A stretch of 62,952 nucleotides of DNA, counting the filler, from Stramenopiles sp. TOSAG23-6 (lineage: Eukaryota), in the NCBI GenBank assembly GCA_900128565.1. It is 11 parts of 11 records of this genome, joined end to end, with 100 filler letters (N's around TTAATTAATTAA, not from the genome) between each part and the next. Parts side by side here need not be neighbours in the genome. Positions count along the whole stretch, not along the records: positions 7,483 to 14,845 come from LT636571.1; 10 more parts are not named here. One strand, 5' to 3'. Position numbers and translations under genes: made by a program. The notes below the pieces were generated by a model. It saw only the letters and a list, made by a program, of their open reading frames with translations, was not told where the DNA came from and did not search any database. Shown piece by piece: positions 4,523 to 57,971 of the stretch (its first letter is position 1; every line of letters starts with the position of its first letter).

Positions 4523-6663
4523 ATGGGATTATGTGTCAGTAAGCAGCAAGACTGGCCAATAGGGACTCTCGATCATTATCAAAAAGACTCAGATTCTGTT
4601 GTAAAATTACTCTTATTGGGAGCAGGAGAATCTGGCAAGAGTACAATTTTCAAACAAATGCAAATATTACACAAGCCCGGTGCTTTTAAAGGTATTTTAT
4701 ATCATCAACAATTATACTCGTGTATTTTTTCGACCCTACATGAAGCATTTTATAATAACTCAAATATACTCTATTTTACTTATTTTTCTAAATACAGGAG
4801 CTTCCGCTAAAGCGTATGCCGATATTATTAGAGGAAATCTGCATAAAAACATGAAAGTTTTAGTCAAGGGTGCAGATAAGCTGGGTATCAAAGTGAATTC
4901 GGAAACAGCACTGAAGCAATATTTTTCAATTGATTCGAGGGGTGAATGGAGAAATGAATGGACAACAATGTTTAAGACGCTATGGAATGACTCTGGAATC
5001 CAAGAGGTGTATTCAAAACGTTCTCTACTTCAAGTGTCCGATTCTACAGCATATTATTTCTCTAATATTGATCGCATCGCATCTCCAGACTATTTGCCCA
5101 CTCAGCAGGATATTCTCCGCGCGCGGCATACGTTTTCATTATGAATTTTTTACTCATTTCGAACTAGTTTTTTTCATAGGAAATTTTGTACCTAACAAAC
5201 AAAATTAAATTATTGAAATATTTTTTTCAATGCATATAGGACTTCAGGAATTGTAGAAGAGCATTTTTTGGTCGGCGAGAATCAAAATGATTTCGCCATA
5301 TTTGATGTTGGTGGCCAGAGGAATGAACGTAGGAAATGTATGTTTTATTTTTTTCAATTTCTAATTTATTTATTTTTCATACGAAATTTTGTACCTAACA
5401 ATTTTTTTTTTTTTACGAAAAAAAAAAAAAAAATTTTTTTCACGAAACAGGGATTCATTGTTTTGATGACGTCACTGCGGTTATTTTTGTGGCTGCCTTG
5501 AGCGAATATGATGAAGTTCTCTATGAAGATCGACATCAAAACCGAATGGTTGAAGCAGTTCAACTTTTTAAAGAAATTGTAAATTGCAAATTTTTCTCTA
5601 AAACGTCAATGATGTATGTTTTATTTTTTTTCAAATTTGAATTTTGAATTTATTTTTTTTTTTATAAAAATTTTGTACCTAACAAATTTTCAAGATTTTT
5701 TTTTGAAATATTTTTTCCAAAATACATATTGTTTCTAAACAAACTTGATTTATTCCGAGAAAAAATTAAAACTGTCGATATAAAGCAACCCCTAGAACCA
5801 TGGAATAAGGACGAAGCCGAGGGAAATGTAATCGATGCTGAATTGGAAGGGACTCTTTCCCAGAGAAAAATTACACAGACTCGTCATAATGTGCGTTTTC
5901 AATAGACTTATATTTTTTATTTTTAAATACGAAATTTTNTACCNACACAAAAAAAAAAAAAAAAAAAAAAAAAAAACGTTTTTTTAATTTTTAATTTTTT
6001 TTTTCGCGCGAAATGTGGTGCCTAATTTTTTTTGTATCATTATTTTTCACAATACATGGTTTTTTTATGGATTATGACGGAGGTTGTGACGAAAAAGCTG
6101 GACTAAAATATTTTGAAAAATTATTCCGTAAACAAAACAAAAATCCAAACAGACAAATTTTCACGTATGCAACTACAGCAACGAATACAGAAAATATCAA
6201 ACATGTACGTTTTTTTTTCATACGAAATTTCATACCTAACGTTTTTTTTTTTCATCATTTCATCATTCATTTCAAATTTATTTATTTATTTTCAAAATAT
6301 TTCTTACTTTTAATTTTTTTTTTTAAGATATTGAGTTTTCTCATCATCATCATTCATTCATTTCAAATTTATTTTTTTCTTTTAATTTCAATTTGTTTTT
6401 TCAATTTCGATTTTTTTTTAATTTTTAACTAACAGATCAATCAAATTTTGAAATATCTTTTCACAGAACATGTATTTGAATCCGTACGTCAAACTTTAAC
6501 TGAAGATGATTTTAATGATATGTATGTTTTATTTTTTTAATTTCGAATTTATTTATTTTTCGTACGAAATTTTGTACCTAATAAATTTTAGTTTTTTTTT
6601 TGAAATATTTTTCCAAAATACATGGGTCTAGGAGGTACGGATAACCCCATGCACGCTTTGTAG
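4523..6663 (+). CDS. Heterotrimeric G protein alpha subunit, 8 exons
   Basis: MGLC lipidation start, [56 protein letters not shown], rebuilt across introns 4692-4797, 5128-5235, 5338-5450, 5614-5727, 5891-6057, 6205-6471, 6522-6623. Confidence 0.95.
5128..5235 (+). other. Non-canonical intron, AT...AT (G-alpha intron 2)
   Basis: ATACGTTTT start, GTACCTAAC motif, ends CAATGCAT; removal restores switch-I R-x-R-T-S-G. Confidence 0.75.
5614..5727 (+). other. Non-canonical intron, GT...AT (G-alpha intron 4)
   Basis: GTATGTTTT...GTACCTAAC...CCAAAATACAT; removal restores SMILFLNK. Confidence 0.9.
6205..6471 (+). other. Non-canonical intron, GT...AT (G-alpha intron 6), skips a CAG 5 nt upstream
   Basis: Removal restores NIKHVFESV; splicing at the CAG would frameshift. 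Confidence 0.85.
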
Positions 6664-7382: not shown

Positions 7383-7482
7383 NNNNNNNNNNNNNNNNNN
7401 NNNNNNNNNNNNNNNNNNNNNNNNNNTTAATTAATTAANNNNNNNNNNNNNNNNNNNNNNNNNNNNNNNNNNNNNNNNNNNN
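7383..7482. other. Artificial contig spacer
   Basis: N44-TTAATTAATTAA-N44 (stops in all six frames). Confidence 0.98.
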
Positions 7483-8235: not shown

Positions 8236-9381
8236 ATGAACATGTCCACGAACATGCCCAACGGTAATGGCGCTAATGGATGCGTCAATAGGTTGGAAAC
8301 GTTACTAAGAAAGTGCGATCCTGAAAAAACTGACCGATATATACTGTCAAGCTGTTCAGTCGATAAGTTGCGCGAAATACAGAGTAGCCTATGTGAACTA
8401 GCGCACGAAGTTCGCCGCCAATCAAAGCACAAAAAGAAAAAAACGCGAAAAAAAAGAGCATCGTACTTATCTAGGGCTGATACTGCGTTACTCTATATCC
8501 GTGGAAGACTGAATGAGCTGTCCGTCAACTCAAATTGCGTAAGTTCAAGAAATTTTTATCAATAATTTTTTTTGTACGAAATTTTGTACCTAACGAATTT
8601 AATTTTTTTTTGAAATATTTTCTCAAAATACATGAAAATTGTATTAGTCCAACAGCAACTAACCCTAAAACCCCAACAGCAACTAACCCTAAAACCCCAA
8701 CAGCAACTAAAAAAACCCCAACTAACAAAAGAGGGTCTCTTAAAGGGTTAACACCAGAAAGGCTACTCTCGTCACCGTGGATTTTTTTTTTAATATCTTT
8801 TTTTTTTTTTTTCATGCAAAATTTTGTATCTAAAAAAATAAAAATTTCAATATAGATTAAAAATACAGGAGAAAAAAACGAAGATATACAAATGAAATAA
8901 ATGCAGCAGCAGCAGTATCATCAGTAGCAGCATCAGTAGCATTCGCAGCACCACCACCAAAACGTAACGTAAAACCAAAACGTAACGTACGGTTTCTTTT
9001 TTTATTTTTTTATTTTTTTTACATATTTAATTTTTTTCAATAATGTTTTATTTTTTTCTAAATTTTATACCTAACCTAAAAAAATACAAGTTTAAATATA
9101 CATTCAAAATATATATCTTGGAACGTTTTCGTCAAGCTCGCCAAAATAATAAAAACAAGAACAAAAAAAATAATAGTCCAAGAGTACCTGCTAAAAAACG
9201 AGTTAAAGGGTTAACTCCAAATAGGCCAACGTGGGTTTTTTTTAATATCTACGTTATTTTTTTTCATTCAAAATTTTGTATCTAAAAAAATAAAAATTCA
9301 ATATAGATTAAAAATACAGGAGAAAAAAACCAAGAAATACGAATGAAATAAATGCAGCAGCAGTAGCAGCATCAGCAGCAG

Positions 9382-9420
<39 letters not shown>

Positions 9421-12400
9421 TATTACCACCACCACCACCACCACCACCACCAAAACTTAAAGTACGGTTTCTTTTTTTTTTATTTTTTTATTTTTTTTTA
9501 CATATTTATATTTTTTCAATAATGTTTTTTTTTCTAAATTTTATACCTAACCTAAAAAAATACAAGTTTAAATATACATTCAAAATATATATCTTGGAAC
9601 GTATTCGTCAAGCTCGCCAAAAGAATAAAAACAAGAACAATCCATCTAGTCCAAGAGCGCCTCCTAGAAAATTTGAAGATTTCCTTGTTAGTCCACTTAG
9701 GATTAAAAGGAATGATCCAATTAGGAGGGATGGTCCACTTAACGTTAGGCGACGTATAAACGTTAGTAGGGTTCCATCTTGTACGTTTTTATCATCCTGA
9801 AAAAAAATTTTTTTTTAAAAATTCATACGAAAAAAAATAGTACCTAACAAAAAACATTTTTAAATATATAATTCAATACTACATGTAATGGAACAAACGT
9901 CTCTTCAGAAGAAACTAAACCTGTAGCTGCGCACGTATCTAAATCTGCACCTGTTGTTGCTGCTGTTACTTCTGATAACGATAGTAGCTCTGATTCATCG
10001 GATTCCGATTCTAGCTCAGATGAAGAAGAAGAAAATAAACATGTAGCTGCGCATGTATCTACCAATGAAGAATTTACTTCTGAAAAAAAAAAAGTACGTT
10101 TTCATTTAAANTTTTTTTTTTANTTTCNTTNAAAANTTTTTTTTTTTAATTTTAATTGTACCAAATTCCATACCTAACCCTAAAAAACAATTCAAATATT
10201 TTTCAAATAAAATGACCTTGGCTATTATGAGAATGCAGCGCAAGATCTGGCAACTTCGCTGCGTGATAGTGGAGCATCGGATGAGCAGATCTTGCATGAA
10301 GTGGATATGGCAGTTGCGATAGCGATGTCGCAAGCGCAAGCTGTGCCGGACGCTGGGGGGCTCCCTAATGATTCGAATAGTTGTTTCATGAATGCTGTCA
10401 TGCAATTATTGTCGAGAACTAGAGAGCTTCGATCTGCCTATTTTGATAGACCATATCATCAAGGCGATCAAGACAATGAAGTGGTAAAACTATTAGTAAA
10501 AGAAGTTTCTGGGTACCTAAATGGTACAAATGAATCATGTTTAACACATATTCATGAAGTTATGAAACAACTTCAATTTATACTGTTTAAACAAGTTGGT
10601 GATCAAGAAGATGCTTTTGAGACGATTATGGAATTGAAAAAAAAATTGAGTATACCTATGAATGTTAATTTTGGCGTTATTCACCAACAGAAGACAACAG
10701 TAACTGTAATGAAAGTACTCAAAGATGTATGTTTTTTTTTTTCAATTTTGATTTTTTTTTCGTACGAAATTCTGTACCTAACAATTTTTTTTGAAATATT
10801 TTTCCAAAATACATGAAGACAAAAATGGCGCATTTGAATATAAATATGAAAATTACCCAAACGAATTATTGAAAGAACATTTTCTAGATATTCCAGTAGA
10901 AAAGATTCAACCAATTAATCTTGATGATCCTAATTCTAAATTGTATGAGTATGTAATTTTAGAAGGCGAAAAAATAAAATTTACATGGACTATATACAGG
11001 AAAGGCACTATCGAAAATTGTATTGATCCTCTAAATATTCCTTTGAATGACGACACGCCACAAAATTTTTCTTTTGAAAAATTTGTAAAAGATTCTGCAA
11101 AAGATAATCCCCGCAAATTATTAAGCGGTTTCGGATCTTTATTATCAGATGAAAATTGCGAAGAACTCAGATTTGATGATATATGTCTTAGAGAGATACG
11201 CATAGCTCAGCTGATACAAGATCTAGACAAGCTTAGTTTACAACTAGAAACTTTGTATAATCAATTTGAACCTTTGAATGGGAATGTATGTTTTAATTTT
11301 TTTTCAATTTTGAATTTTTTTTTCGTACGAAATTTTGTACCTAACAATTTTTTTTGAAATATTTTTCCAAAATACATATGAATTATTTGAAGAAAAGAAA
11401 ATGTTTTTTTTTGTGGAAAAAAGAAACCTTTGGTGGAAAAAACAACATATCTTTGGATGAACATTTGAATAATGTTCTAGAAGAAGTTGAAAAATTCATG
11501 ACAAGTGAAGCATTATATAATTCGGCGAATTTGGAGGGTTTGCAAACACAACGTGAGAATGTGGAAAAAAACGTTGATGAACTTTTAATAAAAATACATC
11601 GATTTTTTAGTATCACAGCTAATCTGAAAACAACAAAAGATGATGTTGTTAGACCGTTGGACTATTATATTGAAGATGGAGGAAGTTCGTTCGAATGTAG
11701 TTCATTGGGTATTTTAATCACTGTGGGACGTTTTAAAACAAAAACGAATGATGCTGGAGATTTCGTAGAAAAAAAAATACATACAAAGACAAAATTTGAT
11801 GATGTGCAAATATCATTAACATTTGATCAAAGTGGTATAAAAACACATGAACTTACAGCTTTTATTTCACATATCGGAAGTACTTCATCTGGTGGTCACT
11901 ATGTTGAGTATCAGAGAAAAGAAGCTAACGAAAATCCAACTGATGATTTTTACGCAAGATGTTATGATGATTCACGGGTAACTGAAGTGTCAAAGGAAGA
12001 GTTTTTAAAAAAAGCAGCAGAAGGGTATATTTTTTATTTACGCCCAATTCAGATTAACAATGTAAGTGGTGGCTATTTTTTTTTTACTTTTCATTTGCAA
12101 ATTTCAAATTTATTTTTCTAGTAAAAATTGTATTTCTAACAAAAAAAATATTTTTAATATTTTGCATCACTATATGAAGAAAAAACAAAATCAGATATTG
12201 ACCGTCCTGTACAAAACTCAAAGCTGAAAGCACTCAACCTTGTTATCAGAAAGGCACTTCCCGCTGCAGCTGCTGACACAAATGGAGCTAATGCAGGTGG
12301 TCATGTTGCTGCAGTCGCTGATACTGATAATGTTGCTATTGCTGTCGGAGATGCTGCCGGTGCTGCCGCTGACGGGGATGAAGAAAAAACAAAATCTGAT

Positions 12401-14648
12401 ATTGAGAAATTTGCGAATCGTCGTGATGCTCTTAGTGATGATATTAATGAATCGAAAGATAATGTATGTTTTGCTTGGTTGTTTTAAATTTTTCTAATAT
12501 TTCGTGATTTTTTTTTTCATACGAAATATTGTACCTAACAAAAAAAAACAATATTGAAATATATGTCTTTACAATAAATCAGATAAATATCGATGCTAAA
12601 CGTTTAAGTCGTCTTAAGACAAGAAAAACCCGAGAAAAACAAAGTCGTCCTAAGAAAAAAAAAACCCAAGAAAAACAAAGTCGTCCTAAGAAAAAAAAAC
12701 CCGAGAAAAACAAAGTCGTCGTAAGAAAAAAAAAACCCAAGAAAAACAAAGTCGTCGTAAGAAAAAAAAAAACCCAAGAAAAACACATTCGTCAGAAAGA
12801 AAAAAAGAAAATAAAAGAAGCATCAGTACCAGCAACACCAGCACCAGTGTAAGTGAATGACCGTTCATTTCAAATTTATAATTTACAATTTTTTTTTATA
12901 CAAAATTTTGTACCTAATAGAAAACCAAATTAATATTCTAACAAAATAACAGTATAAAAAATTCATCGTCATCGTCATCGTCCGCTTTTGAAAGTCCTTT
13001 GCCATTGCCCTCTTCAAAATCTTTCCATGTTGAAACTTCATCTTCTGATACTAATTATGATGAGACAAAGAAAACAAAGAAGAAAAAAACAAAAAAAAAA
13101 CCTGAAAACAAAATTGAAGATGAAGACCCTAGCTCTACGTAAGTGATCATTATTCATTCCAAATTTACAATTTTATTTTTTTTTTCATACGAAATTTTGT
13201 ACCTAACAAAAAAAAAATATATTTTAACAAAAACAACAGTGAAAATAGTACTGATACTTCCTCTTCTTCTTCTGGAACTTCGTCTGATGATAACCTTGTG
13301 GTTGAAGCAAATGGCGAAAAATATGTTTTGAATGACGATTTCAAGACAAATTTTACAGAAGACAGAGATGAGATAACTATCAAAACAGGAAATCTTAAAA
13401 ATAATTGGAAGAATTTCACGTATTACTACAATGTAGAATATTGTGAAAAGCGAAATAAATATAGATCAGTTTTTAGGAAAAATACGCATTTCGACAAATC
13501 CATAGACGCTGCTAATTTAAGTGATAAAATTGCAAGAGTTTATAATAGAAAAAACTCCAACAACAGTAACAACTCTGCCCGAAAAATTNACGATNGNAAA
13601 AAAAAANTTNAATNAAAGACCAAGAAAAAATAACCCTTATACTGGATGCACATACAATGAAGGAACTGGTACATATTCTTATAGAATACAATCTAGAGGA
13701 GAAACACCCATAACTAGACATGGTTTTGAAACTATTCAGGCTGCTGCCAAAGCTAGGGATAAGAAGGTAAAACGTCTTCAAACTAATAAACCAATTGGTA
13801 GTGTGAGACAAACCTTCAACTCCAAAGGTAATTTAATTAAATGCACACCTGCAACAACAGAAGAAAAAAGGTATGTTTCATTATGAATTTTTTACGATTT
13901 TTTTATACAACATTTTGAACCTAACAAATTACCCTTTTGACATATTTTTGTACATTGTGGAGTGCATACACGCACTGTTAGGCGAGTTAAGGCAGCACAA
14001 AAGTCTATAGATGATATAAATAAAGAGACTAATAGAAAAAAACAAAAGAAAAACAACAACAAAAAAAAAAAAAGTAACGCAATAAAAAAGGAAAACAAAA
14101 GAAGAAAAAAATATAGTTTTCGAGAACACCAAAAATGTCCGGTTCGAAAGCCTATAAATGAACGTGTTGATCTTCAAGCTGCGGTATGTCATGATAAGTG
14201 TTATAAAACTGTGACAAAATATTGTAGAGATATATGTCAATTGTGTCATGGTCATAAAGAATGGTACAAATATGACCATAATGACATTGACAATCAATTA
14301 GTGATGGAACACTACATAGAGCTGCGTCACTATTTTCCTATCCTTGAATATAGTGACAAAGCTTGTTGGGATGCTTTGTATTATAAAGGAATAGTAATAA
14401 TGTCCTCTAAAATGAATAGTTGGAAGCTAAACAAGTGTCGACCCAGACATCTTGTTCCCAGAAAAATCTTCATAAGGATGAGTCTAAAACAAAAAGCTTT
14501 GGAGTACTTTCGATTAAAGTACTATTTTGATAATAGAAATAAAGAGGGATTTGAAGTTCAAAACTATGAAGATGATTATGATAAAGACGGAAACATGAAG
14601 GATGAGTGTAAAGAGAAAATTAAGTCATTAATTAAGCATTTGGAATAA
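8236..14648 (+). CDS. Large ~15-exon gene: low-complexity N-terminus, UIM-like motif, USP catalytic domain, Lys-rich repeats, AP2-like domain(s)
   Basis: Cys box GLPNDSNSCFMNAVMQLL, QEDAFE, His box HIGSTSSGGHYV, YDDSRV; EQILHEVDMAVAIAMS; YTGCTY...YSYRI...GFETIQAAAKARD. Exons chain in frame through family introns (e.g. 8539-8633, 10727-10814, 11286-11377). Frames near 12650-12780, 13590-13615 and the last intron are uncertain. Confidence 0.7.
8742..9640 (+). repeat. Tandem duplication of a two-intron exon module (8742-9164 and 9205-9640)
   Basis: Near-identical intron and exon sequence in both copies, e.g. AATATAGATTAAAAATACAGGAGAAAAAAAC and CATTCAAAATATATATCTTGGAACG. Confidence 0.9.
12622..12790 (+). 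repeat. ~33-bp coding tandem repeat, about 5 copies
   Basis: Repeated AAAACCC(A/G)AGAAAAACAAAGTCGTC(C/G)TAAG. Confidence 0.85.
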
Positions 14649-14845: not shown

Positions 14846-14945
14846 NNNNNNNNNNNNNNNNNNNNNNNNNNNNNNNNNNNNNNNNNNNNTTAATTAATTA
14901 ANNNNNNNNNNNNNNNNNNNNNNNNNNNNNNNNNNNNNNNNNNNN
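14846..14945. other. Artificial contig spacer
   Basis: N44-TTAATTAATTAA-N44. Confidence 0.98.
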
Positions 14946-14989
<44 letters not shown>

Positions 14990-15013
14990 TCGAAATTCAC
15001 AATGAAGACGTAC

Positions 15014-16930
15014 ATGTTTTGGTCTAGTCGATAATGAGTCGGTGTTAGATTTATTAGAGTTATTAGGTGTACTACTACATGATTCATTATTTTGTTCAAA
15101 AATGTTTTTTCCGTCACGTCGTCTATTTGTACAATCAAGAGAACTCCCACATATATTGTGAAAAATATTTTTTTAATTCGTTAGGTACAAAATTTCGTAC
15201 GAAAACAAAACTAAATTCGAAATTGAAAAAAATAAAACATACGTCTTTTTTTTTGTATATTTTCATCCTTTTTCTCACGTGATCGACTCTTTCGACTAGA
15301 TAATTGTGAGGTATCTGAATCATTTTCAACTTTCATATTTTTTGTTTTTTCTGTTGTTTCTGTTTTTTCATTTTTTTTCATTTTTTTTGGTATATTTGGT
15401 TGATATGGATCCACTTGCCAAACTAAAACAAGGCCATCTTCACCACCAGTAGCTAAATAATGCCCAGAATGAGAAAATTGCATAGTATAGATTGCACCTG
15501 AATGAGCTTGAATTTTTTGTATTTCACGAATTCTTGGCCACTCTCGAACAGATTTATTTTCACAATGTGTTCTTTTATAAGAAAATGTTGGGTCTCGACC
15601 CCAAGCTCTTGCTTCCTCAGTTGACCAATTGGCAGGTTTGTCCGCACCAAATAAACGCCCAAATGCAGAAGTTCTAAGAGACCACTTATTTTGAACTCGA
15701 AAACCTCTACTACGAGCGATAGGACTATCATTTTTAACATTTTTTCCAGATCCACGTTCAGAATCAGTTGATGCGCTACGATTTCGTGATTCAACTTCAT
15801 CACAACCTTCTAATAAAGCAATTTCTTCTTGTGATCTTTTTTTATCACGTTTTGTAAAAGTAGAATATCGATGTAATGGTTGATGTTTTTCAACATCATT
15901 AATATGAAAGCGTATCTGCTCATCTTGATCAGTCACTAAGTATTTAGGGTCAACATTATCAGTACCGTACATGTATTGTGAAAAAACACGAAATCACAAA
16001 AATAATTGTTAGGTACGAAATTACGTACGAAAAAAAAATAAATTCGAAATCCATAATGGAAACGTACACACCTTGGCTTTCATGTAAACAATCATTCATG
16101 TCTTTATCCCGTTTTTCAGAATCAATACAAACTTTACTTTCCTGTCTTTGCAATTTGTGTTTTTTTTCAAATTGACTATTTTTTCTAGGAGATACTGGTG
16201 GTGGTGTATCACTCTTTATCTTAAATGGACTATTTTTTCTAGGAGATACTGGTGGTGGTGTATCACTCTTTATCTTACTATTTTTTACACGGTTACTATT
16301 TTTTTTAGGTGATACTGGTGGTTTACCTATACAATTATGTATTGGCTTTTTTTGTGTATGACTAGCATCATGACGTTGTAAAACTTTTACACTACTATTT
16401 TTCCGTAGAGCTACACCACTTGTAAATAAAGAGTCAATTGTGTCACTACTAGTAAATGAAGAGGCCGTTGCATCTCCAGAATTTTCTGAATGATGTGTCG
16501 AAAATTCTTGATCGTTTTTCACGCTCTTATTTTCCCTCTTCTCATTCATATTATCACGAACAGATACACTTTGATCATTCAAATCGCTCTTGTCTATTTG
16601 TTGAATGTCACTGTTGCTGTTTTTTTTGACGTAATAAGTATGAAATTCTGTAAGTGAGACAACGCCATCCTTGTCTTCGTCTATATTATTAAAAAGTTCT
16701 GTCAGTGACATTTTCTCATCTGCCGTTGCATTAGGTCTATTTGATTCAAATGAATCACGTGGTTTATGATTATTAGACGAGGTTCCATTCAAAGGACGTT
16801 TCTGTGCTTTTATACTTTTAGAACGACTATCTAAATTGTTTTTGTGTGTTGAAGCTATATGAGACTCAGATTCAGACTCTACCTCCGACTCTGCGGATTC
16901 AAACTCATCAAACAAATCATCTCCATCCAT
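15014..16930 (-). CDS. WDR44-like WD40 protein with an N-terminal EF-hand-like motif, 3'-truncated
   Basis: DEFESA N-terminal motif, DEDKDGVVSLTEF, QKIQAHSGAIYTMQFSHSGHYLATGGEDGLVLVW; GT...AT introns (e.g. 15971-16067). Confidence 0.75.
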
Positions 16931-20329: not shown

Positions 20330-20448
20330 GTAGTGTTGTACGCATTGTGAAATTCCGTACCAATTTTTTGTACTTTTTTGTACTTTAAAAAAAAATGAAA
20401 ATTAGGTACAAAAAATGGTACAGAATCTCACAATGCGTACAACACTAC
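20330..20448. mobile_element. 119-bp MITE-like foldback element with 10-bp flanking direct repeat
   Basis: Perfect 21-bp TIR GTAGTGTTGTACGCATTGTGA / TCACAATGCGTACAACACTAC, extending imperfectly to ~44 bp; flanks TGGTGAATAC (20320-20329) and TGGTGAAGAC (20449-20458). Confidence 0.8.
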
Positions 20449-22282: not shown

Positions 22283-22382
22283 NNNNNNNNNNNNNNNNNN
22301 NNNNNNNNNNNNNNNNNNNNNNNNNNTTAATTAATTAANNNNNNNNNNNNNNNNNNNNNNNNNNNNNNNNNNNNNNNNNNNN
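22283..22382. other. Artificial contig spacer
   Basis: N44-TTAATTAATTAA-N44. Confidence 0.98.
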
Positions 22383-22399
22383 AAAATAACAATTGATGT

Positions 22400-24322
22400 T
22401 TAGAACGTAAAATAAATTGTGTACAAATATGTCTTGTATGTTTTGTGAAAAAATATTGAAAATTTTTTTTGAAAATTTGTTAGGTATAGAATTTTTTTAC
22501 CAAAAAAAAAAAAAAAAAAAAAATTGAAATTCATCAAGAAAACAAACATGGATATTTCGTGTAGTAAGTGAATGCCATTCTTGAAAAACATCTTTGTTGT
22601 AAAGAAAACATTGTATTTTGTGCTAATCGTTGAAATTGTTTGTTTACAAAATTATCTAATTTAAACTTGTTTTGACGAGCTATTGTTTCCGCATGATGAC
22701 GGGATTCTTCTCGAACTGCCATGATATGTATTTTGTAAAAATATTTCAAAAAAAAAATTCAGAATTTTTTATTAGGTACAAAATTTCGTATGAAAAAATA
22801 AAAAAAAAAATAAATAAAACATACATAAGCTTCTTTCTCTTCTTCTCCTTTTTTCATTTGGTTGGATAGAGCCGTATTTATAATGGCATTAACAGTATCA
22901 TCGGAATATTTGACTTTTGTAATAAAAGCATAACGAACCCATGAATGAAATGCACTTGACATTGTTTTTGATGTTTGATGATTTAATCTCATTTATTTTG
23001 GAAAAATATTTCAAAAAAAATCTTAAAAATTTTGTTAGGTACAAAATTTCGTATGAAAACCAAAAAAAAAAAAATGTAGACAAATTTTGAAATTTTGAAA
23101 AAAAAAAAACATACATTTCCCAACTACTAAACACTCGGGCTATTGTTTTTTTTCCTTTCTTCTTGTTTTCGTGTAATTTCATTTTCATAATTAGCACATT
23201 GTTGTTTCATTATTTTTTGTGTTTTTGTATATTCTCTCCAACATGTGCTGTGAAAAAATATATATATATTTTTTTTAATTGTTAGGTACAAAATTTCGTA
23301 TGAAAAAAAAAAAAATCTCAAAAAAAAAAAAAAAAAAACGTACTGACAAAAACCATACGAGTCAAACTAATTTGTTTTTGTACCCACAATCGTGTTGAAA
23401 ATCTCATCCGTGATAAGAGAGACCGTGAACGAAGTACAAACGTTTGCCATTTTTGCCATGATTGTATCATCGATGGTGTTTTTTTACGTAAAAGAGAGTT
23501 GATTAAGGTTAATGCCAAGATTTTGTTTTTATGTTGTGTTTGAAGTTTTGCAAAATTGAGTTGTTCTTCGACGCGTTTGGTTACAATTTTATGTCTTTTA
23601 TATGCAGAATATCCTGTATTGTGAAGATATATATATATATATATATTTGTATGAAAAAAATGGTAGACAATGTATTAGTTGTACAGACATATACAAATAA
23701 ACAAAAAAACAAATAAACTTTTAGAAGAAAATTTCAAAAAAAACATTTTTAGATTTTTTTTTTGAATTTGTTAGGTACAACATTTCGTATGAAAAAAAAA
23801 AAAAAAAAACGTACAAGTCCGCCATGCCGAGGATTTACTTTTCCAAATCGTTCGTGTGATTGTTTTTTCAATTAATTCTTTTGATCTCTGCCTTTCTTCA
23901 TTTTTTGCATTCGTCGTGATATTCACCCATTTCATCCATGCAAGCATATATCCACTTCTTGTCATTACATTTATTTTGGAAAAATATTTCAAAAAAACAA
24001 TTTTGAAAAAAATTGTTAGGTACAACATTTCGTACGAAAACCAAAAAAAAAATTAAAAATTATTTCGAAAAAAAAATTTTGAAAAAAGTTGTTAGGTACA
24101 AAATTTACTATAAAAAAAAATTAAAAATTATTTCGAAAAAAAAATTTTTGAAAAAAAAATAAAACATACATGAAGATATCTTCGAACTGTGATGATTGCT
24201 TTACGTTTTTTTTCTATAATTTTCTTCCATGATAACAATATTGTTTTTTTGAATATTTGTCGATGTGTTGAAAATAGTTTATTTACAATTTTTTGTTGTA
24301 TTGAACTACCTTTCATTTCCAT
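22400..24322 (-). CDS. Intron-rich gene fragment with Trp-periodic (Sfi1-like) repeats; possibly a pseudogene
   Basis: LLSWKK, AWMKW, SAWRT, SWQKW, FVSWRE, VFSSWE, AFHSWV across ~7 exons; one junction gives TGA. Confidence 0.45.
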
Positions 24323-29895: not shown

Positions 29896-30352
29896 CATGA
29901 TGAATTTCAAATTTATTTTTACAAAAAAAAAAAAATCATAATTTTTTTTCAAATCCAACAAAAATAATAATATAATAATATATTGAATATAATTGATCAA
30001 AGCAAGTTCAAATTGTGCATTACTAATTTACTATTCTTATTCCCTATACATACTATATACAATATATTAGCATCGTTGTCCGGAACCGGGTACCTGTATT
30101 TGACCAATTTCTCAAAATCTCAAAACCTCAAAAAAATAGGTCAAAATTACAAAATTAGGGTTAGGGTTGATAAAAACAACACGAAATATATGGAAAAAAC
30201 ATGAAAAAAATGAAAAACTCGAGAGATCTCACAAACTCTACCTCGGTCTCTTTCTCTACTAAAAACAACAACAACACACACACACACAATATTACACCAC
30301 GGGGGCGCAAGCAACAATCATTTCTTCATATTGCTAATTTGTGTGTGTGAAC

Positions 30353-33031
30353 ATGTCAAATACTTTGTTAGAACGATGCCGTAGAACATTACAGGATAGA
30401 GATGAGGGGTGTAAGCTTTTATCTGAGGAATTGATGGAAGTACCAGAGACTCAAAAAGATAAAGTGAAGCAGGAGCTTCGTGTCGCTGCGTACATTTCGT
30501 TTATTCAGAAACAGTGTAGTGATCTATTATCTCTTTTCAAGGACAAAGATGGATTCCGACGAGCTGAAATCAAAACCATGTCCAAGGGTGATATTATAGA
30601 ACAATTTTATGCTCGTTATGGTGTCAATTCTTGTTATCATAAGAAACATCCAAGTATAGCGCCTGAGCAGTCTCTCCAAGATCGTCTGAACGTACTCGTT
30701 AACAAGTCTTTCATGAAGTTTTCAGGTGAAGAAAAGTATGGAAAATACTTGGATTTACATCAATTCTATACTCGTTTCTTAAATATGTCGGAGTTTGACC
30801 AAACAAAGGATTTTTTTCTATCAAAAAGTGACAAGGGGAGAAAAACGAAAAAGCATAAATCGTCAAACCCAACTTCTGAAGAAACTAAGCCAACTTCTGA
30901 ACAAACAAACTTGAATAAAAAAGACACCACACTTCAAGATGATGAAAATCAGAAAGATAGTCATGATGATTCAAATGTACAGAATAGAAAAGAAATTTCA
31001 TCAACAATATCCAAATCAAAAACAACAAAAACAACAAAAACAATTTCGTATCGTCAATTTCTCGATTTATTTTATATATTTAATCATGTAAATGTGTGCT
31101 ATCGTACGGGACATACTGCTACGACACGAAATCTTGTATATGCACAATATATTCATGATTTACGATATTATTTGGAACATTTTATTCAACGTGCTCAACC
31201 TGTCCTTGGTAATGATGCGAAAGATGCAATCAAACAATGGGAAAATGAATTTTCAAAAAAATGGGAAAAACAGGAAAATAACCCTAACCCTAACCCGTCT
31301 CTTAACGTTGAAATGTTACAAAAAAAAGATGGATTTATAAATGTAAACAAAATATCTACATATGATGAATTATCAGCAATGGAGACAAAAGCGATAAGAG
31401 CAGCTTTGTCCGTATATGGATTAAAAAAAGGAGGTACTCACAAACAGTGTGTACGTTTTTCAGTATGAATTTCATTTTTTTTTTCATAGTAAATTTTGTA
31501 CCTAACAATTTCAAAAAAAAAATTTGAAATTTTTTTCATAAAATTTTTTTTTCATAGTAAATTTTGTACCTAACAAAAAAAAAGAAATTTGAAATTTTTT
31601 TTCATAAAAATTTTTTTCATAAAATTTTTTTTTCATAAGAAATTTTGTANCTNACNAAAAAAAAAANTTTNAAATNTTTTTTCACAAATACATGTTGATC
31701 GATTTTGGTCCATTCGAAATTTGCATTACAGTCAATGGCCTATTGATATTTTTCAAACTTCACCAAATGCTACTACAAATGCATCAAAGTCTAATTCAAG
31801 GAAGCGAAAACGAAGACGTAAAAATAACCCTAACCCTAATACACAAAATATCAAAAATACAAAAAATGGTACAAAAAATGGTACAAAAAATACAAAAAAT
31901 GTAAAAAATGTAAAAAATTCAGCTTTTGAAATTGCACAAAATGAATATATTATTCATTTACTTGCAACAGAAATGCATCAAGAAAAACTTCGAGCAACAC
32001 GAAATCAAGTAGAGAAAAAGTTAACATTAACTTATAATGTAGGTTTTCATTTGTAGTACTTGAATTTTTTTTTTTTTTCAAAAATTTTTTTTTTTCAAAA
32101 ATTGTTTTTTTTCAAAAATTTTTTCATAGTAAATTTTGTACCTAACAATTTTTTTTCAAAATTTTTTCAAAATATTTTTGTACACTATAGGAATTGATAT
32201 CTCGACATGAAGATGAAGAGGATGCTGAACGTTTAGCAAATAAACTTGTTCAATCCGATGATGAAGACGATGAAATCATTTATAATCCTCTGAATCTTCC
32301 TTTGGGATGGGATGGAAAACCAATTCCTTTTTGGTTATATGTATGGTTTCATCATGAATTTATGAATTTATGAATTTAATTTTTTTTTTTTTTTTTTTTT
32401 TTCGTACGAAATTCCGTAATTAACAAAAACAAAATGTCAAATATTTTTTTACAATATATAAATTACATGGTTTGGGTATTGAATATAAATGTGAAATTTG
32501 TGGAAATGAAAGTTATTGGGGTCGAAGGGCTTTTGATAGACACTTTCAAGAATGGAAACATTCTCATGGTATGTACGTTTTCAATTTATCAATTTAAAAA
32601 AAAAAAATTCAAAATTTTTTTCAAAATTTTTTTTCAAATTTTTTTTCAAAATGTTTTTTTTTAAATGTATACTAACAAAAGAAACAACTAAAAAATATTT
32701 CCCACAAGACATGCGATGTCTAGGTATACCAAATACAAAACATTTTCATGATATTACAGTTATTGAAGATGCTGTGGCCCTTCATCAAAAATTATCTGCC
32801 TCTTTGGCTAAAGATTCATATAGCAAAACTATTGAATATGTATGTTTTATTTTTTTTTTCTTTACCAAAAAAAAAAAAAATCGAATTTTTTTTTTCATAG
32901 TAAATTTTGTACCTAACATTTTTTTTCAAAATTTTTTTTTGAAATATTTTTCCAAAATACATGAAGATTCAGAAGGAAATGTATTGGATCAAAAAACATA
33001 TCGCGATTTGGAACGACAAGGGTTACTCTAA
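30353..33031 (+). CDS. SF3A3: Splicing factor 3A subunit 3 (SF3a60/Prp9), 6 exons
   Basis: [75 protein letters not shown]; introns 31451-31693, 32039-32190, 32341-32459, 32573-32712, 32840-32962. Confidence 0.95.
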
Positions 33032-38968: not shown

Positions 38969-40600
38969 TTATTCTTTTTTTTCTACAATTTCAAGTTGAT
39001 ACCCTGGAAATGAAGGACTTTCGTATCCTCCATTCCACTGTACATGCACTGTTCCATCCGAATTATTGGATACAACTACACCAATATTTGGACATGTACT
39101 ATTTTCACCAATACTTGGAGGTGCAATATTTTCGATTTTATATTCGTCTCGCAAGGAACATTTTTTACCGACAAGAGATTCGCCTTCCAAACCACATATT
39201 GTGAAAAAATATTTTTAGAAAAAAAAATCATTAGGTACGAAATTTCGTACGAAAAAATAAATTCGAAATTGGTAAAACATAAAACAAACACGTTCCCAGA
39301 GTAAAGACAAATATCCAAATATAGGAACGTCTATACCTCCAATCTTTTTTACTCTGAAAGATCTCGTCGAATTCACAGATGGATGATTACCTAAACACCA
39401 AGTAACAGCATCTGCAAACCCAGGAGGGTTATCTATCATTAAATTATGCCCACTATCTTCAACTCTAGCAATCATAATATTTTTTATTGTTTTTTTTTGA
39501 GCTAGCTTCTTAGACTCACGAACGGTGGAACATTGGTGCCTCAATTGCAAAGCAGAATTTATATCCATCCAGTCTCGAGTTCCATATACAAAAGATATTG
39601 TATTATTTGCAAAAGGTAACTTTAACTTAGGTATGCGATCAATTAGAGGTCTGAAGGCGTAAGCACCTGGTAATAATAGTGTTGAATGACATGAACCACC
39701 TACACTGTAAAGTATTGAAATATATCAAGAAGATTTCATATGAATAAAGATTGTTTTTTTCTAAATGAATTAGTATAATTTTGTTATATATATATATATA
39801 TATATATATTACGAAGGCTCTCCATTACACCAATTGTATAACCAGTAATTCTGAAGTAATTTGTGAGGTGTCCAAGAGGATTGCTTAAATCGTGCTTGAG
39901 TATATTTACCTAGCCAATAGTTCTTGAAAGGCAAATCAAATGGACCATAGCCCCTTGACCAGAGACTTCGAACAGAACGGATAAGCATATTTCGCATAGA
40001 CCAAGTTCTGCTTGTTTGAAAAATCTTCAGATTTTCAGGTGCACGTGGTAGACCAACAGGTGATATTAATATCAAATCTTTTACATTTTGTCCGTGTTTT
40101 TCTGCATAGGCTACTGCAATGTACCCACCGATACTATGACCAACAATTGAAATATGCTCAACATTGAGAGATTTACGCAAGCCTTCAACCCCTGATACAA
40201 AGAAGTTCTCAATTTGATCAATATCTGCACTTGATCCATACCCAGAATCGTACTTCTCCCTAGTGGAGAGACCACAGCCTAAACTATCCACACTATATAC
40301 ATCGCACTTTAGTTTGTGAGAAATCAGTGGTGCTGAAGTTGCGTATATTCCAGTACCACTACCATAACCATGTAAAAGAAATACAGGTACATTGCCAGCT
40401 TGTACGTTTGAGCTACGATAACGTACAGTATGCATTTTCTGCTCACTACCTTTTTCTGACACCTGAATTTCAAAATCTACTGGTTCTACACTTACTGACA
40501 CATTATCTTCCCGACGTAATCGTATCCACTGTCTCGCCCATGAAAGGCCCCAACTAACAAGATCTTGTTCAGCATCGCGAGCATTTTTTTCATTCGACAT
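38969..40600 (-). CDS. Alpha/beta hydrolase, ABHD4/5 (CGI-58)-like
   Basis: LLHGYGSG, GHSIGG, LILISPVG, HNLMIDNP (HX4D); introns 39705-39812 (GT-AG) and 39196-39291 (GT-AT). Confidence 0.88.
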
Positions 40601-46298: not shown

Positions 46299-46706
46299 AA
46301 CACATGTGAAAAAAAAAAAAAAAAAAACAGGATTTTTCGTACGAAATTTCGTACCTAACGAAAAAAAAAATCGACGTCTAGTCTATCCTTTTTTTTTTGT
46401 GATTATTTGATAAATAAACAACACTCTAGAGAATGTAGAGACATTATTTTATACTATGTATATATATACATGATACACAAGGAAAATAGCAACATGAAAA
46501 GAATGTATATCAACATGAAAAAAATATATATTTTATTACACTTCATTTAAAAGTACAACAAGGATAATCAACCCTAACCCTAGTACAAAGACATTCATTG
46601 TAGGGCTAGTGGCCTCTTTTTGAGTACTCATTTTGTGTAATGAGTTCATTGTGTTACTTTATATGTTTTAGATATAATAGATTTTTTCTATGTTACATTC
46701 TCCAAA

Positions 46707-54283: not shown

Positions 54284-54602
54284 AACTATGTTTAATTTTC
54301 AGGTATTTCTTGAAAATAAAATATACCAGAGTAATGCCTTATTGATTTTTCTCCAAAGCAATTGATTTTTTTTTTTTTAATATTTATTGCTGTTTGAACA
54401 ATGTTTGTTTGAATATATATATTCAATAATGACATTATGACAATATATGAGAATTTTTTTTTTAACAGTTACATTTTGTCAAATAACATGACTACTACAC
54501 TACTTATACGTAGCTATAGTTACCCTACGCGTTTCTCACTACTGTAAGATTTCATCAATAAGGATGCTTCATTGATATATACCATATTGAAAAACGTATT
54601 CC

Positions 54603-57600
54603 ATGAGAGCTGCAGCTGCAGCAGGAAGTAGTCCTAGGCGGAAACATCGGCAGAGCAATACCTTAGATTCTATAAAGTTAACGAACCCATCATTTAAAGA
54701 TAACAATTCTTGTGTTACATCAGTTGAAAATAATAAAAATAGTATTGCCAGTGAAGAAACTCTCGTTAATTCTACGAAGAAAGAAGATTTCCCCGTTTTT
54801 GAAGAACATATTGACTCTATTGAAACAGAAAATGATAATGTTTCAAAAGAGAAAAATACCAAAGAAAATCTGAACGAAGCGTTTCACAAGGGATTTTACG
54901 AAAACGCAATGATAAAAGCACAGCAACATACATTACCCTGGTTTCTTCAAGACTCTGATTTATTTGGTGTAAAAGACGAAATAAACCAAGAACAAAGTGA
55001 AGAGACCAAACCCGGTTGTAATGAATCAAATATAAGACGTCAAAAACCACAGACTCGCCGTGGTGTTTTTATTGACATGAATCAAGCTCGGAAGCTTACT
55101 AAGGTAGGTGAAAAAGTTGGGACAAAGTTTGCAATGACAGATGGAATACTTTTTTCAGCAGACAGGAAAATGGTTATTACAATGCCTTCCGTTGATGCAG
55201 CCATGGCAAAGTTATCTAATGATAAACATGCCTTAGAGTCCTTCCTTTGGGAACATAAAAAAGAGGGAAATGCAAGATTAGCTCTTGGTGCCGAATGGAA
55301 GATTCGTGCAAATGCTCGACGTTGGTCTGCCCTAGAAGATAGCAAAGGATTAATTGGCGAGCTTGAAATAGCAATGTTGAAACAGCGCGAAGCCATAGCA
55401 AGAAATAAAAAAAAATACCGATATGAAGTTTGCGTAGGACGAAATAAAAGACCTGATGGTTTTTGGAAAAAAGAGGGTCGGGATAAAAAACCTATATATA
55501 AGATAATGGATATGCTTCCTGATACTGATGATCAAAATGTAGTAGCTTCGTCTTCAAGAATTAATAACCCTAGATTCAAAATATTGAGTTATAATCTTAT
55601 GCCACAAAAATACTTCAAAGAACAGAAAGATTTGTTTATGTATTGCAGTAGTCATTTACTAAATTGGTCTTTTAGGTCAGAGAATTTATTAAAAGAAGTA
55701 ATTTCTTTTGGCGCGGACATAATTTGTCTTCAAGGAGTAGACCAATATGAAAAGTGGTGGCAACCAAAGATGTCAAATGCTGGGTATGATGGGATATTTA
55801 AAGAAAGCACAGCTGAATATTACTCCTTTGGCTTAGCTACTTTTTATAGGAGAGATATTTATCAATTATGTTCTTCAGATTCCCTTGAATTTCGCGATAT
55901 AATGAAACAATCTCGGGGGACTGACGCTGATGATAAAGATGACGACAGTGATAAAATAATAGAATCTCCATTAAAAAATAATGATGTGGCGCTTGTTTGT
56001 ACATTGCAGCCGTGGGAAACATCCCCACATCCTTCCGCTGTATTTGTTGTAAACACAGAACTATCGCGTAAGCCACCACATAGTATTCATGCGAATGATG
56101 CTAAATCGTATTTGCGTATGCTTCAAGCAAGATATTTATTGCGCAGAGTTGAAAGATGGAATGCGCATATGCAATTGCCTGTTTTAATGACTGGAAGTTT
56201 TCATTGCGATAGTGAAGATCCTGTTTATCATATGATATGTACGGGTAGTTTACCAAAAATCTTAGAGCCCCCAAGTCAACCAGGAAAACCAGTTGCTTTT
56301 AAACCTACTTGGTCTTCGATGCAGGTTAAATGGGAAGTATGTAAATCTGAAGGTAGCCATTCTATAGTAGGGTATAAAATACAACGACGAGTCGGGAAAA
56401 ACACATCAATAGGTTTTACAAATGATATATTTATACCTGTTGATCCACATGAACATAGTGATAGTGATAGTTGGACCGATTCTGAAGAAGAAGAAATGAC
56501 TAAGCTTGATCAATTGAAAGCCTCATACGACGCCGAAGAATTACCGAGACCAAAGGCAAATGCATATTTTAAACTTTGTGAGGAAAAAGTAGCAATAGCA
56601 AATGCAGTGGCAGATGATGCTATTGGTGCGTTTGCCAAAGCACAATCGATGTCTATTCGGGCATCATTAGAAGATAAAGCTGATGCAGTTAAGAAAGCAG
56701 AGGAATTAAGTATGGCAAATTTAGTCGCCCAATCTAAGAAAAAAACGGAATTAGATGCTTTAGAAATAGCGCGTCAAGGTGATCCTATTGCATTAGCTGC
56801 ATATGTTATTGAGCTAAATAAGAAAGTTGCAAGTATACCAGATGATCCATTAAAACGTGGAGTGAAGAATCGCGCGATTGCTGAATTGAACGAATGTAAA
56901 ACTAAACTTGAAGTTTTAGAAAAATTTATGAAAAAAGAAACAAAAAGAGTCAAACAGGAAATAAAAGAACGTGCTGAAGAATTGGCTGCGAGGTTAGCTC
57001 GTGGAGATTCAGTATTGTTAGAAGCAGAGTTAGCAGAGAAAAAAAAACTTGATGAGAAACGGAAACAAAAGGAAGCAGATATTCGAGCTCGTCGACGACT
57101 CCGAGAAAAAAAAAAGAAAGTTAAATATATAGAATTTACTGCTCAAGAGCTCGCATCAGGTTTAGTCTACGAATATCGTGTAGCTGCAATGAGCGTAATT
57201 GGTTTAAGCAAATGGTCAGAAATTAGCGATCCTTTAGCAACTGCGATAAGCCGAAGACAAGAAAAAGGATTGTGCTCGATATTATCAAATGTAGATATCG
57301 CTGGTGGTATAATAAAAAATGTTGGCGAAAAAGACGAATTAGATCTTGATTTAGTAATTGGTCGCAGAGATTCGGGATTAACGCCTCGTCTTGATGATGG
57401 CACTAAATTACATGGAACAGCAACAAATCGTTCAATGGATTTAATGGACTATTTTCATGCAAAAGGTGTACCTTTAGGTACTCTAGATAAACTAGCAGTC
57501 CATGCACTTAACTTGCGGTCGGCCTATGCATTATATCCTTTAGGTCCTTCCCACGGAGAATTTGCAGTTGGGGAACCTAGTGCAACTTTAATCACAGAAA

Positions 57601-57971
57601 GAAGAAGAGAGCAATGTGATTACATCTTCTATTCAGCAGAAAGATTTGTAACCAAAAGACTTATGATGGTACCAGGCAAAGCATTCATGAAGGAGTTGGA
57701 TGTTCGAGAACCGGAAATGATCAGTGCATCTGAAAAGGATAAACCAGCCAATTGGTGTACAGAAAAATATATACTAGAAGCTAATTATGACACAGGAGAA
57801 ATGAATGAAATCCCAAATCCTTTATATAAAGGAGAGTGGAAGGGTGCTCTTGTACCTAATCCAAACAGAACGCACAATTATTTACCAAACAGGCATATTT
57901 CAAGTACACATTTCGCATTATGCGCAGAGATAGCATTTTCTGATATGACGTTAACTTCTGAATGGTACTAA
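54603..57971 (+). CDS. CCR4/Angel-like EEP-domain protein interrupted by a split FN3 domain and coiled coil; probable pseudoenzyme
   Basis: FKILSYNL, LNWSFR, ADIICLQ, GLATFYR, CDYIFY; FN3 halves PPSQPGKP...GYKIQ and LASGLVYEYRVAAMS...WS. Confidence 0.8.
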   Translation: MRAAAAAGSSPRRKHRQSNTLDSIKLTNPSFKDNNSCVTSVENNKNSIASEETLVNSTKKEDFPVFEEHIDSIETENDNVSKEKNTKENLNEAFHKGFYENAMIKAQQHTLPWFLQDSDLFGVKDEINQEQSEETKPGCNESNIRRQKPQTRRGVFIDMNQARKLTKVGEKVGTKFAMTDGILFSADRKMVITMPSVDAAMAKLSNDKHALESFLWEHKKEGNARLALGAEWKIRANARRWSALEDSKGLIGELEIAMLKQREAIARNKKKYRYEVCVGRNKRPDGFWKKEGRDKKPIYKIMDMLPDTDDQNVVASSSRINNPRFKILSYNLMPQKYFKEQKDLFMYCSSHLLNWSFRSENLLKEVISFGADIICLQGVDQYEKWWQPKMSNAGYDGIFKESTAEYYSFGLATFYRRDIYQLCSSDSLEFRDIMKQSRGTDADDKDDDSDKIIESPLKNNDVALVCTLQPWETSPHPSAVFVVNTELSRKPPHSIHANDAKSYLRMLQARYLLRRVERWNAHMQLPVLMTGSFHCDSEDPVYHMICTGSLPKILEPPSQPGKPVAFKPTWSSMQVKWEVCKSEGSHSIVGYKIQRRVGKNTSIGFTNDIFIPVDPHEHSDSDSWTDSEEEEMTKLDQLKASYDAEELPRPKANAYFKLCEEKVAIANAVADDAIGAFAKAQSMSIRASLEDKADAVKKAEELSMANLVAQSKKKTELDALEIARQGDPIALAAYVIELNKKVASIPDDPLKRGVKNRAIAELNECKTKLEVLEKFMKKETKRVKQEIKERAEELAARLARGDSVLLEAELAEKKKLDEKRKQKEADIRARRRLREKKKKVKYIEFTAQELASGLVYEYRVAAMSVIGLSKWSEISDPLATAISRRQEKGLCSILSNVDIAGGIIKNVGEKDELDLDLVIGRRDSGLTPRLDDGTKLHGTATNRSMDLMDYFHAKGVPLGTLDKLAVHALNLRSAYALYPLGPSHGEFAVGEPSATLITERRREQCDYIFYSAERFVTKRLMMVPGKAFMKELDVREPEMISASEKDKPANWCTEKYILEANYDTGEMNEIPNPLYKGEWKGALVPNPNRTHNYLPNRHISSTHFALCAEIAFSDMTLTSEWY

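Follow-up and report, generated by a model that had tools for sequence, protein, structure and literature searches.

Introner-like introns with probable non-AG 3' ends

We analysed a stretch of 62,952 nucleotides from Stramenopiles sp. TOSAG23-6 (GCA_900128565.1; eleven parts joined end to end with filler, together called the window) and found that a 25-nt motif inside an intron of a ubiquitin-hydrolase (UCH) gene is probably the conserved core of a new repeated intron family, introner-like and resembling a miniature inverted-repeat transposable element (MITE), most copies of which would be cut at the 3' end after AT. A first-pass annotation had described this sequence as an extended, structured branch-point motif. 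The position and orientation of its CTAA fit that role, but the motif is part of a whole repeated intron and not a free-standing signal. Repetition of the entire intron had gone unnoticed there, as had the lack of an AG end in most copies.

The exact 25-mer lies at 11321-11345(+). Allowing up to three mismatches, the motif matched 39 times on the two strands of the window, compared with a mean of 0 in 100 dinucleotide-preserving shuffles. A looser rule (at most one mismatch in the last 8 nt and at most seven over the whole motif) gave 57 instances. In 15 clean aligned copies, the similarity spans the intron from GTAYGTTTT to the final intron base and ends at the exons. The copies are about 90-125 nt in size and consist of GTAYGTTTT with a T-run at the 5' end, CAATTTCGAATTTATTT, the 25-nt motif, and a 3' module of either the GAAATATTTTTCCAAAATACAT form (19 matches with up to three mismatches in the window) or the TTTTTTCACAAYACAT form, which are versions of one another when aligned from the 3' end. 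The copies match these modules far better than shuffled flanks do. The host genes are unrelated and represent more than ten Pfam families (cyclase, G-alpha, two UCH, WD40, ATG9, Myb, SF3A3, BAG, RCC1/TIG, and KH). A scan for the 5' site returned 47 candidates; 35 are family members and the rest are mostly coding-strand false positives or copies cut by contig ends. Three contigs terminate within a copy (near 15013, 44734, and 59369), which would be expected if a high-copy repeat disrupts assembly. The similarity over the whole length, its limits at the borders, and the unrelated hosts fit the working definition of introners used in surveys, as given in the available part of PMC12130899.

The motif is the core common to all subfamilies, without clear excess constraint beyond CTAAC. 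Among motif-found copies, which are biased by that selection, its 3' half (AAATTTTGTACCTAAC) shows 5.9% mismatch versus 17-30% in the other modules. When copies were found through the 3' modules (19 and 28 matches) or the 5' module (21; the lists overlap), the same half averaged 1.1-1.6 mismatches in 16 positions, about the same as the finder modules, and thus the motif is no better kept than those modules.

A 19-mer pattern searched in other public assemblies matched six loci, of which two are true copies (L001 and L004, both in metagenomes) and four are chance matches in unrelated DNA. The reading frame around the L004 copy is ambiguous. In L004 (MDTB01012742.1, 600-660 in the minus-strand view), we also observed telomere-like CCCTAA/TTAGGG repeats about 150 nt downstream of the family copy. 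The strict 25-mer had no matches in metagenome, viral, and genome contig collections. In the main texts of the literature, we found no description of the family or of the motif strings, which returned unrelated primer-type matches; two 12-mers of the motif gave nothing, and the topics of GT-AT introns and protist single-cell genomes likewise yielded nothing on this family.

The introns 8987-9103 and 9462-9579 are nearly identical, as is the exon sequence that flanks them, pointing to a local segmental duplication and not to two insertions. Three consecutive introns of one gene (12062-12180, 12849-12952, and 13139-13239) all start with GTAAGTG and contain family modules, and are a subfamily with a different 5' end. 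The second and third of these end in ACAG, while the first apparently ends in TATAT.

Reading frames and homologues place the probable 3' cut after AT

Among 40 curated 3' ends, we counted 34 AT, five AG, and one GT. Eighteen AT-type copies have robust open frames on both sides, and 15 of them are in phase at GT..AT (binomial P = 1.9e-5), whereas the first AG past the branch site is in phase in six of the 18, which is chance level. In three copies (6205-6471, 23243-23343, and one near 2680), an out-of-phase AG precedes the family-homologous end by 5 nt; for the copy near 2680, this is our own reading of the frame data. In 6205-6471 and 23243-23343 at least, the family-homologous end keeps the phase. 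The AG-type copies end in ACAG or ATAG where the others end in ACAT or ATAT, so that T occupies the place of G. Introns are usually preceded by an exonic T, often within AT, and 22 of the 40 copies are followed by G.

Junctions are collinear with homologues for six family introns in two genes. The G-alpha gene (4523-6640) has seven introns, of which six are family copies. We found three close homologues (P0001, P0002, and P0003) with 92-96% identity in an exon (94-96% for P0001 and P0002); P0001 and P0002 are unbroken open reading frames (ORFs) on contigs of 1.4 and 2.4 kb. By tblastn, every G-alpha junction is collinear with the close homologues. The intron 4 junction, TSMILFLNK, is the same in P0001 and P0002, with TAMILFLNK in P0003 and TSIILFLNK in solved G-alpha chains, which align to the exons on either side. 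The first AG after the branch site of this intron is 32 nt past the AT end and inside coding codons, and its use would therefore delete the NKxD box. A search of PDB with the 35-residue last-but-one exon returned no G-alpha match. Intron 2 starts with ATACG and not GTACG. Its homologues read RAR-IR-TSGI, and the conserved R is kept only by the 3' border before AGG, while a GT..AG alternative (5132-5239) puts T in its place; the odds favour AT..AT at the family-homologous borders, though not decisively. In the second gene, which encodes an EF-hand/WD40 protein, the junction of 15971-16067(-) reads QGVYGTDNVDPKYL and compares with QGVFGTDGVDPKYL of a more distant homologue, P0121.

Together, the frames, the collinearity in two genes, and the equivalence of AG and AT ends place the cut after AT, and removal of the family at GT..AT is likely. 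We put at even chances the more specific proposal that, in a GT..AT family (with A as the first base and T as the last in one copy), a U2-type spliceosome sets the 3' cut by position after the strong GUAUGU and UACCUAAC, and not by AG, passing the AG 5 nt upstream in the three copies named above. Positional cutting of this kind may be tied to adapted U2, U2AF, or second-step machinery.

Two other accounts of the borders were tried and set aside. AT..AC borders were rejected as a general rule: about ten copies have no AT before GT, and the 5' flank of 15971-16067(-) is GT and not AT, which excludes AT..AC there and leaves only GT..AT or GT..AC. A hairpin in the 3' module that would hide the upstream AG was dropped because its 5' arm is not conserved across copies.

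In the UCH gene itself, UCH Pfam matches lie on both ORFs flanking the focal intron (11286..11377). The phase is kept across its GT..AT boundary, between 168 open codons on the upstream side and 247 on the downstream side. No homologue of the upstream exon (10815-11285) was found. The outermost 6 nt of the putative terminal inverted repeat of this copy (ATGTAT/ATACAT) pair perfectly, in DNA that is AT-rich.

The presumed branch site and the central motif

The motif follows the direction of the genes. The strand of the larger flanking ORF is the motif strand in 52 of the 57 instances, the opposite strand in four, and tied in one; the four include instance 46335, which is situated in non-coding sequence downstream of genes. 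The second A of CTAA and the curated 3' end are 29-58 nt apart, mostly 34-48 nt. Both results bear out the first-pass annotation, in which the motif was sense-oriented in introns and some 30-50 nt from the 3' end. It was also correct that the box has one more C than the yeast-type sequence and is distinct from the U12 box: exact TACCTAAC occurs 49 times in the window (28 + 21) and TACTAAC five times, while the U12 branch box TCCTTAAC has no match there.

CTAA is retained in 55-57 of the 57 instances, a count biased by the anchor used for finding them, and it is also present in most copies found through other modules. Variation is concentrated at motif positions 4, 5, 8, 9, and 16, and positions 10-15 and 18-24 are at least 91% constant. 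In its fullest form, the motif consists of two tandem 12-mers, each beginning with TTTCGTAC, and the variable sites coincide with the three CpGs of this form. Decay of methylated CpGs may have caused the variation, but CpG is not depleted across the window (observed/expected 0.96). In decayed copies, the TACC preceding CTAAC is altered and CTAAC is retained (ATTTCTAAC in the intron from 12062, GTAGCTAAC, and GTATCTAAC). CTAAC fits the general U2 branch consensus. The near-invariant CTAA, the sense orientation, and the suitable distance to the 3' end indirectly support CTAAC as a U2-type branch site, with its second A as the presumed branch point.

Some motif copies are unusually arranged. Tandem pairs 52-76 nt apart occur within single introns (24015/24091, 27424/27491, 31482/31550, and 34531/34583) and suggest internal duplication of the branch-site module. 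At 46300-46430, a motif copy with all three CpGs intact is located 3' of a stop codon, has no GTAYG 5' site, and is preceded by a stretch resembling an inverted 3' module; this copy is possibly non-intronic or rearranged.

Proposed origin and points that weigh against it

We propose that a short MITE-like sequence was copied into many unrelated genes and would be removed as a spliceosomal intron. Each copy would bring its own signals, namely a yeast-like GTAYGT(TTT), the branch sequence CTAAC, a T-rich tract, and a fixed 3' end about 34-48 nt past the branch A, with the 3' cut after AT in most copies, where a minority carry AG. The 20 bases preceding CTAAC would be alike mainly through recent shared descent and not as a maintained RNA hairpin, and the palindrome would be a leftover of internal repeats of the element. 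We infer cutting by a U2-type spliceosome and spread of the family as a mobile element, which may have had a MITE-like DNA origin or may have moved by reverse splicing. Duplication of a 2-nt AT target site was rejected as a rule: three of the five AG-type copies also have AT before GT, and most copies with a non-AT flank still end in AT and do not repeat their own flank.

Several observations weigh against this reading. There is no fixed target-site duplication, the repeats at the borders being 0-6 nt long among the copies with correct coordinates (8 nt, judged by eye, at G-alpha intron 6), and the 5' flank is other than AT in about ten copies. With its 24 nt and 71% complementarity, the terminal inverted repeat is weak, and no autonomous element was seen in the window, so that movement as a DNA transposon is unproven. 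Splicing, the branch A, and the 3' cut are each deduced from sequence. Three of the 18 robust copies fail the frame test, and our explanations came after the fact: the last exon may be short at 54137, the 5' site at 49925 (GTACAT) lies outside the pattern, and the copy at 39196 has a 2-nt GT repeat. In the focal copy, an AG 15 nt downstream of 11377 is also in phase, so that this copy alone is not decisive for the AT end. Each of the three close homologues of G-alpha may be a transcript or else a gene without introns. Finally, the better-kept 3' half of the motif could reflect constraint beyond CTAAC, in the motif-selected set.

Alternative explanations

Two alternatives ascribe the length of the motif to pairing in RNA. 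Yeast-type UACUAAC pairs with the GUAGUA box of U2, and by our own reasoning from the familiar U2 sequence the extra C would bulge against a canonical box. The extended TACCTAAC box, or more of the motif, might be read by a changed small nuclear RNA (snRNA), either U2 with an extra G in GUAGUA or a transformed U12-like RNA, with a box matching GUUAGGUAC; the conserved length would then reflect base pairing. The minor spliceosome tolerates non-AG 3' ends in other organisms, and its introns have a shorter distance from branch to 3' end than the 34-48 nt seen here, which is long for that class. The preponderance of exact TACCTAAC over TACTAAC, the 79-100% constancy of the eight bases upstream of TACC (in a motif-defined set), and the acceptance of non-AG ends in AT-AC minor introns elsewhere (available part of PMC11282704) agree with a changed snRNA. 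The window nevertheless lacks the U12 branch box that should stand near the 3' end, and the 5' box is GTAYGTTTT and not RTATCCTT (GTAYGT in place of RTATCC). Only CTAAC is retained in decayed family copies, and the one clear non-family intron (4690-4798, GT..AG) has no CTAAC, which is a weak argument against a spliceosome that demands a long box. Rfam returned no matches on the window at the gathering score, and the five weak matches with E up to 1 include no snRNA. Since CTAAC already fits the U2 consensus and decayed copies keep it, a variant snRNA is not needed, and we regard it as quite unlikely. A structural switch had also been suggested, in which the dyads would fold into an RNA hairpin and so expose or mask the branch A; we consider this very improbable. 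The two overlapping dyads beside CTAAC that had been described are indeed both present in the consensus, and the hairpin GUACGA/UUGUAC, which ends right at CUAAC, is predicted in every copy folded, though weakly (-4.4 to -5.6 kcal/mol). Whole introns, though, fold no better than shuffles (z -0.2 to -1.5), the isolated hairpin has a z-score of -1.9 in one copy and -0.7 in another, and the 12-nt palindrome permits a stem of at most 4 bp with three A-U pairs. Neither stem covaries. Counted over the 57 instances (43 distinct motif rows), paired cells make up 74.8% in the 6-bp stem versus 74.6% in shuffled data (235 of 500 shuffles reach the observed value) and 81.4% versus 80.7% in the 4-bp stem (180 of 500). 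Changes on both sides of a pair were limited to one cell in the 6-bp stem and four in the 4-bp stem, with no excess over shuffles. The 5' arm varies (G5 in 20, C8 in 38, and G9 in 34 of the 57), while the partners are fixed (C20 in 55 and G17 in 50). The closing pair is absent in 24 of the 43 distinct rows and the C-G pair in 17. The stem-keeping variants that had been reported do exist (16008, 28081, 39230, and 46335) and strengthen the hairpin, but they are one-sided changes from G.U to G-C, and the more frequent variants disrupt pairing (position 5 is A in 26 and position 8 is G in 13 of the 57 instances).

It is conceivable, though rather unlikely, that the palindrome TTTCGTACGAAA and the repeated ATTTCG units are DNA-level binding sites for a transposase or other protein of the moving element, with CTAAC adjoining by chance; this would be compatible with the motif being the core of a repeated intron family. 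The tandem 12-mers of the fullest form, the recurrence of ATTTCG in the 5' and 3' modules, the imperfect inverted repeat formed by the ends, the motif-like sequence GAAATTCCGTACC in a separate 119-bp palindromic element (20330-20448), and the copy at 46335 outside any intron context are in keeping with such sites. On the other hand, the window has no transposase gene or longer element and no constant target-site duplication, antisense copies inside genes were not found, and the strict sense orientation fits selection at the RNA level. Because such sites need not persist after insertion, the data cannot separate them from simple descent. The earlier proposal of a transposase site holds in the broader sense that the motif belongs to a repeated MITE-like intron, but a transposase site as such was not shown. 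It is scarcely credible that these introns are ordinary and unrelated, being alike through a very strict demand for splice signals instead of through descent from a single element: the similarity covers the whole intron including modules that are not signals, assembly breaks fall inside copies, and the 19-mer recovers full copies in other assemblies.

The 119-bp palindrome itself has 39-nt arms that are 92% complementary, and the genes for ArfGAP and ATG9 converge on it from either side. Its arms carry GAAATTCCGTACC, and it has weak microRNA-like Rfam matches on both strands. A related MITE is one possibility, a bidirectional terminator another.

Comparison with known introns and implications

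The family resembles yeast-type introns in its CUAAC core with UAC upstream, in GUAUGU as the 5' site, and in the spacing between branch site and 3' end. It differs from them by the extra C (UACCUAAC) and by a 3' end of YAU in place of YAG. Like U12-type introns, it has long conserved 5' and branch boxes and would tolerate non-AG ends, but neither box matches theirs and the distance from branch to 3' end differs.

Introners and introner-like elements are described in Micromonas, Aureococcus, and fungi (PMC9860276 and PMC12130899, available parts). Our family resembles them, as they appear in those parts, in having similar introns in unrelated genes, similarity that extends to the borders and not into the exons, sense orientation, its own splice signals, and possibly transposon-like ends. 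Unlike in introners, most copies end in AT and not AG and there is no constant target-site duplication; a very short, AT-rich element here carries its yeast-like branch box within a palindromic core. According to the available text of PMC12130899, its curation accepted only AG and AC as 3' ends. The nearest precedent for non-AG ends on a large scale is Fritillaria borealis, in which MITE-derived introns are mostly AG-AC and AG-AT and are handled by a U2-type spliceosome with diverged U2AF (PMC11282704; bioRxiv 10.1101/2025.08.15.670264; both in part). Inverted-repeat ends, non-AG 3' ends, a transposon origin of the introns, and removal by a U2-type spliceosome would be common to both. In that animal, the 5' end is also non-canonical (AG) as far as the available portions describe it, whereas here GTAYGT and a strong branch box occur in an apparent protist. 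The Amoebophrya introners (PMC7789003, available part) likewise have a marine protist host, direct repeats of variable length over the borders, and inverted repeats joining the ends; their borders are highly diverse and that part reports no family-wide motif, in contrast to the fixed GT, CTAAC, and AYAT found here. Diplonemid non-canonical introns differ in being GC-rich at the ends and without branch motifs, according to the available part of PMC12621601.

Introners currently offer the best account of how introns are gained in bursts. Surveys accept only familiar splice sites, and hence an AT-ending family would be missed by them and by standard gene finders. Should the AT ends prove real, gene models for this organism and for its relatives would be systematically wrong, and the family would provide a simple natural system, with canonical 5' and branch sites and a non-AG 3' end, for studying second-step site choice, as well as an added case linking transposon invasion with spliceosome tolerance. 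A true GT..AT reading would mean natural, large-scale YAU 3' splice sites beside a canonical 5' site, and the likely GT..AT splicing is the part of our finding that merits follow-up. The family also illustrates that a long "structured" branch motif can be mere shared descent in a repeat family.

Features, genes, and source of the window

Table 1. Positions of the focal intron and its parts, and of introns in the G-alpha and EF-hand/WD40 genes
Feature	Position	Strand	Basis or remark
Focal intron, 92-nt family copy, GTATGTTTT...ATACAT	11286..11377	+	Within the UCH gene
5' splice-site module GTATGTTTT (GTACGTTTT in other copies)	11286..11294	+	15-copy alignment
25-nt central motif	11321..11345	+	Presumed branch site CTAAC 11341-11345, presumed branch A 11344
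3' module GAAATATTTTTCCAAAATACAT with intron-final AT	11356..11377	+	Module matches, aligned 3' ends
Imperfect terminal inverted repeat, 24 nt, 71% complementary	Left 11284..11307, right 11354-11377	+	
Non-family intron, GT..AG, without any CTAAC	4690-4798	+	G-alpha gene
G-alpha intron 2, family copy, first base A not G	5128..5237	+	Best read as AT..AT (5128-5235), equivalently 5130-5237
G-alpha intron 3, family copy, canonical GT..AG	5338..5450	+	Junction restores W codon of KWIHCF, same in homologues
G-alpha intron 4, family copy, GT..AT (or AT..AC via 2-nt repeat)	5614..5727	+	Junction TSM-I-LFLNK
G-alpha intron 5, family copy, GT..AT, decayed motif	5891..6057	+	HN/GFFMDY, equal to KHNGFFMDY of P0003
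G-alpha intron 6, long family copy, flanked by 8-nt direct repeat AACATGTA	6205..6471	+	NIKH/VFES, collinear with NVDKVFES of P0002
G-alpha intron 7, family copy, GT..AT	6522..6623	+	DM/GLGGTDNPM, collinear with EMGYGNGGRDNPM of P0002
Family copy in EF-hand/WD40 gene	15971..16067	-	In phase, 290 + 252 open codons

The window has a GC content of 23-41% in 2-kb steps and consists of parts of about 7.3 kb or shorter, separated by 100-base linkers (N run, TTAATTAATTAA, N run) at 7383-7482, 14846-14945, 22283-22382, and eight further sites. We identified genes for, among others, an adenylate/guanylate cyclase, G-alpha, two UCH hydrolases, ribosomal protein uS5, ArfGAP, ATG9, SF3A3, KH, and WD40 proteins. 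The nearest named relatives of the G-alpha protein are stramenopiles (70-74% identity in one exon), and the sequencing runs found to contain the stretch are all of DNA, two from a single 2015 sample and two from seawater metagenomes with a small share of it; the host is probably a marine protist of the stramenopiles.

The gene for SF3A3, a component of the U2 small nuclear ribonucleoprotein (30338-33000), is itself broken by several family introns. At 54591-57968, an ORF of 1126 codons matches an endonuclease/exonuclease/phosphatase domain weakly at residues 357-552 and matches nothing else. Since no reverse-transcriptase match was found, it probably represents a cellular gene and not a retroelement.

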